This document shows, piece by piece, positions 4,652 through 58,929 of a DNA stretch of 64,000 nt. The number at the start of each line of letters is the position of its first letter. Positions within the stretch are counted from its first letter, which is position 1. The notes beneath the pieces were generated by a model. The model did not search any database and had not been told where the DNA came from. It saw nothing but the letters and a program-made list of their open reading frames with translations. Both the position numbers and the translations under genes were made by a program. The DNA comes from a virus (taxonomy: Duplodnaviria > Caudoviricetes), in the IMG/VR virus record IMGVR_UViG_3300015214_000001, positions 1 through 64,000 of that record; one strand, written 5' to 3'.

Positions 4652-4679
4652 TTGACAATTAATGTGGGGGGGGTAATAT
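4652..4679 (+). promoter_or_regulatory. Poly-G-spacer sigma70 promoter (divergent)
   Basis: TTGACA-ATTAATGT-G8-TAATAT (16 bp). Confidence 0.75.
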
Positions 4680-50400: not shown

Positions 50401-51672
50401 TTAAGGTTGCTCAACGGCATTTGAATGAATATTAGCTGAATGTGCCATGTCATAGGTCATAATGTAAGGCACTGCACCATACCTGCCGACTAAATAACCC
50501 ATAGATAACCATTCCCCTTTGCGTTTCTCGTAATCACTTAATGGGGTTAAAATGGAGCGTCTCTTTTCGTTGGCGCTAATGTCTGGTCTGATGAATTCGA
50601 CAAACCAAACTTGCCCCCTATCTAACCAATTCATCACGTTAACCTGTTGTGTAGCTAGTAGAACCTGCGAGCCAGTTATATTAAATTCGCTATCATGAAC
50701 TAGATCAAGGATAGCATCACAAACGGCAGGATGTAGACCTTCACCATAATTATCTATGACGATAAAGCGTGGATTTTGTCTATTAAATTCTTGATGCAAT
50801 AAACAAAATGTTGCAATCGCTTCTTTCGCGCCGATTGGTAAATCACTCCATAAGATCAACTTGTTATGCACACTATCACGAAATGCCAACTCAGTTGATT
50901 TTACTAATTTTAAGTTGAGATCAGTCTGTGCAGCGCCTACACCTTTAGGGTAGTGTGGTGTAATATCTTGAATCTCAACATTTGATAACTCAAAATCACT
51001 AGCATATAAAAAGCAAGTTAGGGCTTGGCGCAAGGTTTCATTATGGAGCAAGCCACGAATGGCTTCTCGTTTATTGTCCTCATCAACAAAACAGAATAAC
51101 TTTTTAATGTATGCGTGGATCGTCTTTAACTGCGGAACATATCGGCTGGCATGTCCCAAGAACAATGCCTTGTATTGCATATCGTCTTTGCGTAATACTG
51201 AGGAAGGACTTCCCTTCAATGAGCGACCAAAGTTAAATTCATGGCTATTTCTTGTAAATAGCATCTGTGCGCGTTTATTAGGGTAGATATATAACCATTC
51301 TTCCAAAATATCAGCATCAGGTGATAAGACAAACCCATATTGATGTTTCACGCCATCTAGCAGAAACGTCAATTCTAGTTCAATCGGCATAGATGAATTA
51401 CCCCAATGAGTGTGTGGCTCAATGATTTCCTTGCTGAGACTACCAGTATAATTATCTGACTTCGCTACGAGGTCATAGAAAAATTTCATACCCGATAAGA
51501 AGTTAGACTTCCCTGCGCTGTTTTTTCCAAATAACGCATTCATAGATAACAAGGGCATTGCTTCTGTCCCAGTAAGATTTCGTGAGTTTTTCTCACCCTT
51601 AACCTGTGTAAACAGTAGGATTGTTTCTGTCTTAAATGATTTATATCCAGACAATTTAAACTTAATAATCAT
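50401..51672 (-). CDS. AAA_21/RloA-like ABC-type ATPase
   Basis: YKSFK, Walker A GKNSAGKS, EEWL, degenerate Walker B VIDNYGEGLHP, QVWFVE, YLVGRYGAVP. Confidence 0.85.
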   Translation of the reverse strand: MIIKFKLSGYKSFKTETILLFTQVKGEKNSRNLTGTEAMPLLSMNALFGKNSAGKSNFLSGMKFFYDLVAKSDNYTGSLSKEIIEPHTHWGNSSMPIELELTFLLDGVKHQYGFVLSPDADILEEWLYIYPNKRAQMLFTRNSHEFNFGRSLKGSPSSVLRKDDMQYKALFLGHASRYVPQLKTIHAYIKKLFCFVDEDNKREAIRGLLHNETLRQALTCFLYASDFELSNVEIQDITPHYPKGVGAAQTDLNLKLVKSTELAFRDSVHNKLILWSDLPIGAKEAIATFCLLHQEFNRQNPRFIVIDNYGEGLHPAVCDAILDLVHDSEFNITGSQVLLATQQVNVMNWLDRGQVWFVEFIRPDISANEKRRSILTPLSDYEKRKGEWLSMGYLVGRYGAVPYIMTYDMAHSANIHSNAVEQP

Positions 51673-57614: not shown

Positions 57615-58118
57615 TCATATTCCTATTAAACGTATAAGGATAAACTCAACTAACATTTTGGGACTAAACAAAAACCACTCAAGATGATAACGCAATCCAG
57701 CGTAGTGGTCATGAAAAACGCGCTCACCATGCACTTCATCTGGAACTTTAACATTCCACCAAACAAAAATCCCGAATGGTGCGGCAGTACGATGGCTACG
57801 TAGGCGGCTATTTTGATCTGCGCTTCTGCCAATCTTAACCACTGGTAAAATAATGCCTATATCTGAAAAAGCATATATATATCCACCACCACGAACGCGA
57901 TTAATACGCCGTGATTTATTTTTATTGCCATGTCTTGACTTAAAGTGCATTTTATACTTTAGGCGCGTATATCCATATACACCCCATAAGACACAAAAAC
58001 ACAACCACAACAAAAGAAGATGTTTTGTTACATCCCAGTTATTGGTCATCATATAAACGATACACCATGAGATCGGATATATAGAGTAACTGATTACAGA
58101 TTTTAGTATTAAACCCAT
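57615..58118 (-). CDS. GIY-YIG (T5orf172/MUG113-like) domain protein with N-terminal membrane helices
   Basis: GYIYAF...VKIGRS....RL...E..FH......EWF. Confidence 0.8.
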   Translation of the reverse strand: MGLILKSVISYSIYPISWCIVYMMTNNWDVTKHLLLLWLCFCVLWGVYGYTRLKYKMHFKSRHGNKNKSRRINRVRGGGYIYAFSDIGIILPVVKIGRSADQNSRLRSHRTAAPFGIFVWWNVKVPDEVHGERVFHDHYAGLRYHLEWFLFSPKMLVEFILIRLIGI

Positions 58119-58147
58119 TTATATACCATACCTAATTTTAGAAAACA

Positions 58148-58170
58148 AAAAACGTGGAAGTCCACGTTTT
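58148..58170. repeat. 24-bp palindrome, copy 9
   Basis: AAAAACGTGGAAGTCCACGTTTT, just 3' of the tRNA-like RNAs. Confidence 0.95.
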
Positions 58171-58184
58171 AAAAAAGTGTTATG

Positions 58185-58261
58185 TGGAAGTGTGCGGACT
58201 CGAACCGCAGTACAACGCCTATCTCTTTACAAATAAACGCTGGCAATGCCATATCACTCCC
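58185..58261 (-). ncRNA. tRNA-like RNA 2 (mini tmRNA-TLD-like, Ala identity)
   Basis: GGGAGUG/CACUUCC-A acceptor with G3-U70, T-arm UGCGG-UUCGAGU-CCGCA, no D-stem, long central stem capped by GUAA. Confidence 0.8.
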
Positions 58262-58286
58262 ATTTAATAATAATAGTTCTAATAAG

Positions 58287-58365
58287 TGGAGGTGCAGAGG
58301 ATCGAACTCTGATGTAACGCAGTCCCTTGCAGGCTTTAATGCGTTGCACACGCCATATCACCCCC
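58287..58365 (-). ncRNA. tRNA-like RNA 1 (mini tmRNA-TLD-like, Ala identity)
   Basis: GGGGGUG/CACCUCC-A acceptor with G3-U70, T-arm CAGAG-UUCGAUC-CUCUG, no D-stem, central stem capped by GCAA. Confidence 0.8.
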
Positions 58366-58377
58366 TCATTAGAACTC

Positions 58378-58406
58378 ATGATAGCATTTGAGCTTATCGC
58401 TGTCAA
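58378..58406 (-). promoter_or_regulatory. Sigma70 promoter for the tRNA-like RNA pair
   Basis: TTGACA-17 bp-(TG.)TATCAT, 12 nt before RNA 1. Confidence 0.8.
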
Positions 58407-58413
58407 GTATGAG

Positions 58414-58929
58414 TTATAGCAATTCGTCAGGCAAAAGATTGGCATCCAAATTGAAAGTTGTTTCAGGTTCTTCTAAATCGGCAACAAGTCGTCCCCATCG
58501 ACTATCAACCTGTGAAAGTGATTGAATGGCAAAGAATAAAGCGATATACGCTTCTTTGTATTTTTCGCCATCGCGCATCGAATAACCTTTAACATCCTTG
58601 ACCATTTGGTAAAGCTCAACGAGATAATAAAGCACTTCATTTAAAGCAACTTTACTCTCATCTGTTTTGCTAATACATGATCGAGTCAAAATAAGTAAAC
58701 TCTTGACGTTAGATGTGAGAATAACATTACTTTGAGAGACCTTAGTCGTTATGTCGTTGAATTGGCTAATCAATTGCGCGATAGGATGTTCATGTAGATT
58801 ATCATAAGGCGCTTTGAATGATTTAATCGGCAATGTTTTCTCGGCCTTTAAATCTATGATCTTTTTTATTGTGCCTTGCTTTAAACGATTATATAATTTT
58901 CCCTTTTTACTCGACATCACTCTTACCAT
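58414..58929 (-). CDS. Hypothetical protein
   Basis: 171 aa ORF. Confidence 0.75.
   Translation of the reverse strand: MVRVMSSKKGKLYNRLKQGTIKKIIDLKAEKTLPIKSFKAPYDNLHEHPIAQLISQFNDITTKVSQSNVILTSNVKSLLILTRSCISKTDESKVALNEVLYYLVELYQMVKDVKGYSMRDGEKYKEAYIALFFAIQSLSQVDSRWGRLVADLEEPETTFNLDANLLPDELL

Follow-up and report, generated by a model that had tools for sequence, protein, structure and literature searches.

A tandem pair of candidate TLD-only tmRNA genes in a large phage with a probable Chloroflexota host

Background

The closest described counterpart of the locus reported here is the 'TLD only' tmRNA of mycobacteriophage DS6A, for which Mao et al. 2009 is cited as the source in two later papers (PMC4131195, PMC11915505). 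According to Hudson et al. 2014, a TLD-only molecule strongly inhibits tmRNA whether or not it can be charged, perhaps by titrating SmpB (PMC4131195). The reported inhibition of endogenous Escherichia coli tmRNA by the DS6A RNA is repeated by Nawrocki et al. 2025, who add CDS-less plastid tmRNA forms and state that organellar tmRNAs of the CDS-less type are found together with SmpB and have a suggested role in dealing with incomplete mRNAs (PMC11915505). The contacts on which SmpB binding depends are described for E. coli, in which SmpB Trp122 lies in a pocket of A15, U17 and A334, G19 stacks on the protein and the G19C change of tmRNA abolishes SmpB binding (PMC8363625).

Two RNA genes of this general appearance, previously described in a first-pass annotation as tandem alanine-accepting tRNA-like RNAs without an mRNA domain, were analysed in a stretch of 64,000 nt of phage DNA (hereafter, the window). 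The novelty that this description implied for the kind is lower, given that the DS6A TLD-only tmRNA is already reported (PMC4131195, PMC11915505) and has the same architecture as the first of the two genes (copy 1).

Results

Phage and genomic setting

The window constitutes the first 64 kb of a complete phage record of 208,458 bp with direct terminal repeats. The RNA locus occupies an intergenic gap of about 300 nt inside a long series of minus-strand genes, dnaN and recJ among them, and is bordered upstream by a 171-aa ORF that ends at 58414, to which no function was assigned, and on the other side by a T5orf172-domain ORF that starts at 58118. None of the short ORFs (60-69 aa) overlapping the locus was called as a gene. 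An identical 360-nt region was found in two independent assemblies (SRR8449813 and ERZ27247346), which rules out an assembly artefact.

The phage DnaN was nearest to proteins of Anaerolineae, including Aggregatilineales and Phototrophicaceae (49-56% identity), and because it is closest to that group the host of this large phage is probably a member of Chloroflexota from the Anaerolineae group. The best DnaN relative was surrounded by ordinary bacterial-looking genes. Among cultured phages, blastn returned no relative, and the search with the ORF upstream of the RNA locus returned no viral relative; RecJ had a single phage relative (28% identity), in a 214-kb phage from which the mini-tmRNA is absent. 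The phage also carries an AbiEii-like AAA_21 ATPase gene (window 50401-51672, minus strand).

Promoter, terminator and order of the genes

The sigma70-type promoter that had been noted ahead of both RNAs was borne out on the minus strand (58378..58406), with TTGACA at 58406-58401, a 17-nt spacer and TATCAT at 58383-58378. It has 11 of 12 consensus bases and an extended TG at 58386-58385, was the best of seven matches in the region, and would likely start transcription near A58370. Reading on along the minus strand, copy 1 (58287..58365) is followed by an AU-rich spacer of 25 nt (58262..58286), which comprises the 3' trailer of copy 1 and the 5' leader of copy 2, then by copy 2 (58185..58261) and by an intrinsic terminator (58143..58170) that consists of a 9-bp hairpin at 58170-58149 (z = -3.6) and a U-tract. 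Folding of the whole precursor says little about this unit, as the result varies with the start site and long-range alternatives are of similar energy.

Many sigma70-type promoters of this phage have runs of G8-G9 in their spacers (window positions 4652, 13662, 15524, 30810, 33410, 36181 and 42067, plus others elsewhere in the phage genome), which suggests phase variation; the mini-tmRNA promoter is without such a run.

Structure of the two copies

Much of the first-pass description of the RNAs held. Copy 1 is 79 nt long to the discriminator (58365-58287) and copy 2 is 77 nt long (58261-58185), and in each of them the two ends of the same RNA pair into a 7-bp acceptor stem that has G1-C72 and G3·U70 and is followed by A73. 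A 5-bp T-stem with a TTCGA T-loop makes up a canonical T-arm, the D-loop is stemless with GG at 12-13, and CCA is encoded by neither copy. The D-loop region and the T-arm are separated by only 32-34 nt, in which a short closed helix 2 replaces the mRNA domain and no tag frame is found. As had been stated, stem sequences differ between the copies with pairing kept: the T-stems have different sequences and pair completely, and the 4-69 pair is G-C in one copy and A-U in the other.

The middle of the molecules agreed with the earlier description in part, one long stem ending in a GNRA tetraloop having been assigned to both. The long stem applies to copy 2, for which the best fold (z = -3.5) is a continuous P2-like stem of 10-12 bp, but not to copy 1, which has a 6-bp P2 helix, an A-rich internal loop and a 3-bp hairpin, and whose middle folds weakly (z = -0.8). 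Conversely, the tetraloop is found in copy 1, where GCAA caps the hairpin, whereas the stem of copy 2 ends in a 6-nt loop and the GUAA register was scored 5 kcal/mol worse than this best fold. The D-loop, which had been called unpaired, is stemless in both; in copy 2 it faces a competing 4-bp mini-hairpin that is possible in silico (P ~0.85 for its three G-C pairs) and more stable than the open form by just 1.1 kcal/mol.

The architecture occurs twice in the 208-kb genome and not once in any of 60 Markov-resampled genomes; it is therefore not a product of chance. Copy 1 is additionally bracketed by an 11-bp inverted repeat (58275..58376, minus strand; arms at 58376-58366 and 58285-58275), compared with a family maximum of 9 bp among the matches listed and a null of 2/20000. 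In folding, this repeat favours a slipped acceptor stem in the uncut precursor, and it is no family trait.

Class assignment

Rfam at gathering scores gave no match at the RNA locus and ARAGORN made no call in the window, while relaxed-threshold ARAGORN 'tmRNAp' and intron-tRNA calls over the locus were discarded as noise among 167 such calls. Below its gathering score of 47 bits, the tmRNA model RF00023 matched both copies over their full length, with deletion of about 300 positions of the model (copy 1, 27.2 bits; copy 2, 44.9 bits, E 2e-15). Since ordinary tRNAs reach 27-33 bits on RF00023, this score alone is insufficient to identify copy 1, and relatives were therefore gathered and a family model (R1) was built.

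Other identities were rejected on specific grounds. For a canonical tRNA, neither RF00005 nor ARAGORN produced a call at the locus, and no high-scoring cloverleaf with a D-stem and a 7-nt anticodon loop is present there; four tRNAs were found elsewhere in the phage genome. A standard tmRNA was rejected given the missing resume codon, tag frame and pseudoknots, the roughly 300 deleted RF00023 positions and the lack of an ARAGORN call, an mt-tmRNA given no RF02544 match at E <= 1, and a YrlA-like bacterial Y RNA given no Y-RNA family to E 10 and no Ro60/TROVE gene in the genome. The inter-copy junction has a partial RF04321 match (27.5 bits, model positions 36-102 only). A permuted two-piece tmRNA across both copies was nevertheless rejected: pairing the copy 1 3' end with the copy 2 5' end leaves an A·C mismatch at 4-69, a terminator and not a coding part follows, and real permuted phage tmRNAs score 86-104 bits.

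Unannotated permuted tmRNA genes with such RF04321 scores (86-104 bits) were seen in Achromobacter phage JWDelta, Bordetella phage PHB04 and Tunturiibacter phage Tunturi_5 (L395, L396 and L397). These had come up as unannotated matches to the DS6A gene and were set aside as permuted full tmRNAs, not TLD-only forms.

Relatives in IMG/VR

Relatives were gathered by pattern scans of IMG/VR in which position 70 was left free (C or U), yielding at least 179 distinct pattern matches. Among the matches listed, G3·U70 was present in 104 of 106 non-cloverleaf matches versus 1 of 73 ARAGORN tRNAs. Nine-nt pattern matches such as L009 and L012 were excluded because they have no 5' acceptor strand and look like the 3' ends of permuted tmRNAs. 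At least 103 distinct clean family members remained, spread over unrelated phages and 60-88 nt in length (77-80 nt in 59/103 among the matches listed), with loop sequences that vary. In the main class of 45 members, which includes DS6A, the acceptor stem, helix 2, side hairpin and T-stem covary, with 89% of cells paired and a score of 0.58 versus 0.16 when shuffled and ~0.1 when slid. The search filter had partly selected the acceptor stem and T-stem but not helix 2, in which each of the seven pairs has changed on both sides among the 45 members.

The covariance model that the first-pass annotation had suggested as a check, along with a search of phage genomes, was built from these 45 members with the window copies left out, although some training sequences had been found with patterns derived from those copies. 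Copy 2 scored 61.6 bits and copy 1 scored 60.0 bits with R1, against 10.8 bits for the next match in the window and at most 34 for tRNA-Ala, and 22/22 and 21/22 highly conserved columns were kept in copies 2 and 1, respectively. RF00023, R1 and G3·U70 thus support the original reading of a tmRNA tRNA-like domain without an mRNA domain, with alanine identity and of phage origin, and by sequence both RNAs are classed as one-piece tmRNA tRNA-like domains of the DS6A TLD-only kind.

One family member (L385:505-585, minus strand) lies directly behind three tRNA-Ala genes in a tRNA array and has a junction as atypical as that of copy 1. The literature search found no paper that describes the breadth of the TLD-only family and none that uses 'mini-tmRNA'.

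Comparison with described systems

The DS6A gene was located at JN698994 28478-28560 (80 nt; RF00023 43.2 bits, sub-threshold). Like both copies it is phage-borne, one-piece and about 80 nt long, with G3·U70, A73, a stemless D-loop, a canonical T-arm and no encoded CCA, and it shares with copy 1 the P2 helix, the A-rich internal loop and the short side hairpin. Unlike it, the genes described here are two copies in their own promoter-terminator unit, are 55-61% identical to DS6A, belong to a phage with a probable Chloroflexota host and have lost the UCGAC junction, and copy 2 is without the side hairpin.

Standard tmRNA (SsrA, RF00023), including that of Aggregatilineales hosts, has in common with the copies the acceptor stem, alanine identity, D-loop GG, T-arm, A334 connector and start of helix 2, whereas the copies measure 77-79 nt instead of ~390 nt and are without pseudoknots, resume codon, tag frame and stop codon. 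CDS-less organellar tmRNAs (mt-tmRNA RF02544 and the ~65-nt Mallomonadaceae plastid forms) likewise have a tRNA-like domain without a tag frame, but the copies sit in a phage whose host has a full tmRNA, replace none and come without a dedicated smpB gene. Features shared with tRNA-Ala are G3·U70, A73 and the T-arm; the D-stem and the anticodon arm are missing from the copies.

The tandem arrangement

Each of 97 IMG/VR loci among the matches listed had a single copy. No second close pair emerged from IMG/VR when a strict pattern required two heads within 38 nt, the sole match being a tRNA-Ala followed by a single mini-tmRNA, which was rejected. The copies are 64% identical to each other and closer to the genes of other phages (up to 73% and 68%), which points to an old duplication or to a separate acquisition of each. 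Exchange with the Anaerolineae host group is hinted at by a 127-nt tmRNA-like gene in one genome of that group, to which the final 28 nt of copy 2 have 93% identity. The unusual feature of this locus is that two copies lie close together in a transcription unit of their own; the tandem unit, like the atypical copy 1, adds modestly to a known kind.

SmpB-contact positions

The column equivalent to A334, unconstrained by the search patterns, is A in both copies and in 98 of 99 relatives among the matches listed. The G19 column is G in copy 2 and in 72 of these 99 relatives; in copy 1 it is U in the model alignment and becomes G only with a 1-nt register shift. The consensus UCGAC/GGAC junction is missing from both copies. 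Copy 2 keeps the C-G closing pair, whereas the closing pair of copy 1 is non-pairing, its junction bases can zip into Watson-Crick pairs, and it has C60 as opposed to U in 98 of 99 relatives among the matches listed. Because the A334 and G19 equivalents are both kept in copy 2 and G19 is clear only there, copy 2 is the better SmpB-binding candidate; the junction of copy 1 is atypical and its binding uncertain.

Phage and host partners

The search of the phage genome returned no smpB, no full tmRNA, no Pth gene and no RF-1/ArfB-family gene. As the phage has neither smpB nor a full tmRNA, any SmpB partner must be that of the host, and smpB was found in 7/7 candidate-host genomes tested. A full tmRNA was present in 22/22 candidate-host genomes, with CCA encoded in 0/22, and none of the four phage tRNAs encodes CCA; its lack in the copies is therefore normal here. 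A CCA-adding-like nucleotidyltransferase of 498 aa, scoring below curated cut-offs, is encoded at phage genome 105136-106632 (L382:3135-4631), about 0.5 kb from tRNA-Arg(ACG), and could complete the CCA-less phage RNAs. Both acceptor-stem variants seen in the copies recur in the nearest Anaerolineae tmRNAs, though they are common across the family.

Further observations were made on these genomes. In 15 of the 22 candidate-host tmRNAs (L356 and L358-L371) the T-arm is non-canonical, with GGGCAGGUCCC replacing GUUCRA, and ARAGORN misses them. Besides the full tmRNA, 4/22 Anaerolineae genomes have a one-piece tmRNA-like gene of 124-127 nt with G3·U70 and a conserved internal block (L372:169-295, L373:1501-1626, L374:1501-1624 and L375:1501-1626), set among ordinary chromosomal neighbours; one of these genomes (G003) has two smpB genes. 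A third D-stem-less tRNA-like element of the phage lies outside the window, directly behind tRNA-Arg(UCU) (phage genome 92146-92212, plus strand; L380). It has a 7-bp acceptor stem, a long hairpin and a canonical T-arm, and its G3-C70 pair and discriminator U do not correspond to alanine identity.

Discussion

Both copies are, to judge from the letters, real RNA genes that look functional. The favoured reading, held at a probability of about 0.5, is that both RNAs would act as alanylated competitors for host SmpB and stalled ribosomes and so lower tagging; SmpB competition is preferred because of the DS6A precedent and the conserved A334. The host sigma70 polymerase would make a dicistronic precursor running from the promoter to the terminator, both of which are present, and each RNA would be freed by RNase P and 3' trimming and then completed by a CCA-adding enzyme of the host or the phage. 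Host AlaRS would then charge the RNAs through G3·U70 and A73, which both copies have, and these would bind host SmpB at the elbow of D-loop and connector, and EF-Tu, as the head of tmRNA does. With no tag frame in the RNAs, SmpB and entry into stalled ribosomes would be diverted from the host tmRNA, and following the DS6A precedent fewer nascent chains would receive the proteolysis tag during infection. Having a second copy probably raises the dose, and SmpB may be bound less well by copy 1 than by copy 2.

That G3·U70 is strictly conserved, set beside an inhibition that is charge-independent according to Hudson et al. 2014, suggests more than plain titration. Because this conservation exceeds what plain titration needs, some weight was given to a rather unlikely alternative, active tag-less rescue, in which an alanine-charged RNA with SmpB and EF-Tu enters the stalled ribosome, accepts the nascent chain and adds at least one alanine, after which a host back-up factor frees the ribosome and no degradation tag is left, as suggested for CDS-less mitochondrial tmRNA. 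The joint conservation of AlaRS and SmpB determinants, the clustering of lengths at 77-80 nt, the conserved helix-loop-hairpin shape and the role proposed for SmpB-accompanied CDS-less organellar tmRNAs (PMC11915505) are consistent with it. Against it, the RNAs have no stop codon or resume signal for ribosome release, the phage is without an RF-1/ArfB-family or Pth gene, and the sole experiment on RNAs of this kind reportedly showed inhibition (PMC11915505).

Less probable again is a pair that forms an active, sub-functionalised phage module, with copy 2 in tag-less rescue or alanine tailing and copy 1 separately regulated or bound to another tmRNA-binding factor, a role tied to its altered SmpB junction and its leader-trailer clamp. 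If this were true, a widespread phage RNA family would re-route ribosome rescue and not merely block it.

Slightly more doubtful still is a counter-defence role, by which the RNAs would sequester a host defence nuclease or sensor specific for the heads of tmRNA or tRNA, such as one with SmpB-like OB folds, two diverged copies covering two sensors. SmpB-like domains are present in CoCoNuT systems, whose predicted target is tmRNA (PMC10542128), the family occurs in unrelated phages and the copies are only 64% identical, but the literature search found no phage decoy of such a kind. The narrower proposal that the RNAs bait anticodon nucleases is a poor fit, because they have no anticodon loop and their loop sequences vary.

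That copy 2 alone works in the tmRNA pathway, copy 1 being a decaying or repurposed duplicate, is thought improbable. The deviations of copy 1 at G19, at the closing pair and at C60, its weak middle and the flanking repeats that slip its acceptor stem in the precursor would agree with such a role; yet copy 1 conforms to the family at 21 of the 22 highly conserved positions, retains all acceptor and T-stem pairs, has the DS6A side hairpin that copy 2 is missing, and is matched in its odd junction by other relatives (L385). A non-functional relic, an attP fragment or the permuted two-piece tmRNA is largely rejected as highly improbable. In favour of these readings, tmRNA genes serve as integration sites, a tyrosine recombinase is encoded by the phage and the junction matches RF04321 in part. 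Against them, both acceptor strands are present in each copy and show compensatory changes, the recombinase resembles XerC/D and is ~52 kb distant (phage genome 110892-111998; L382:8891-9997), and the longest exact match to the 22 host tmRNAs is at most 10 nt. Nothing supports a non-ribosomal donation of alanine by the RNAs.

Conclusions

TLD-only tmRNAs have one published phage example, are overlooked by ARAGORN and fall below the Rfam cut-off, and more than 100 distinct versions are present in IMG/VR. The locus places two natural variants next to each other that differ in the usual SmpB junction and in the side hairpin, which could help to show which features matter, and it bears on the question of what tag-less tmRNAs do. 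If such RNAs suppress or re-route trans-translation, many phages would target ribosome rescue with an RNA of 80 nt.
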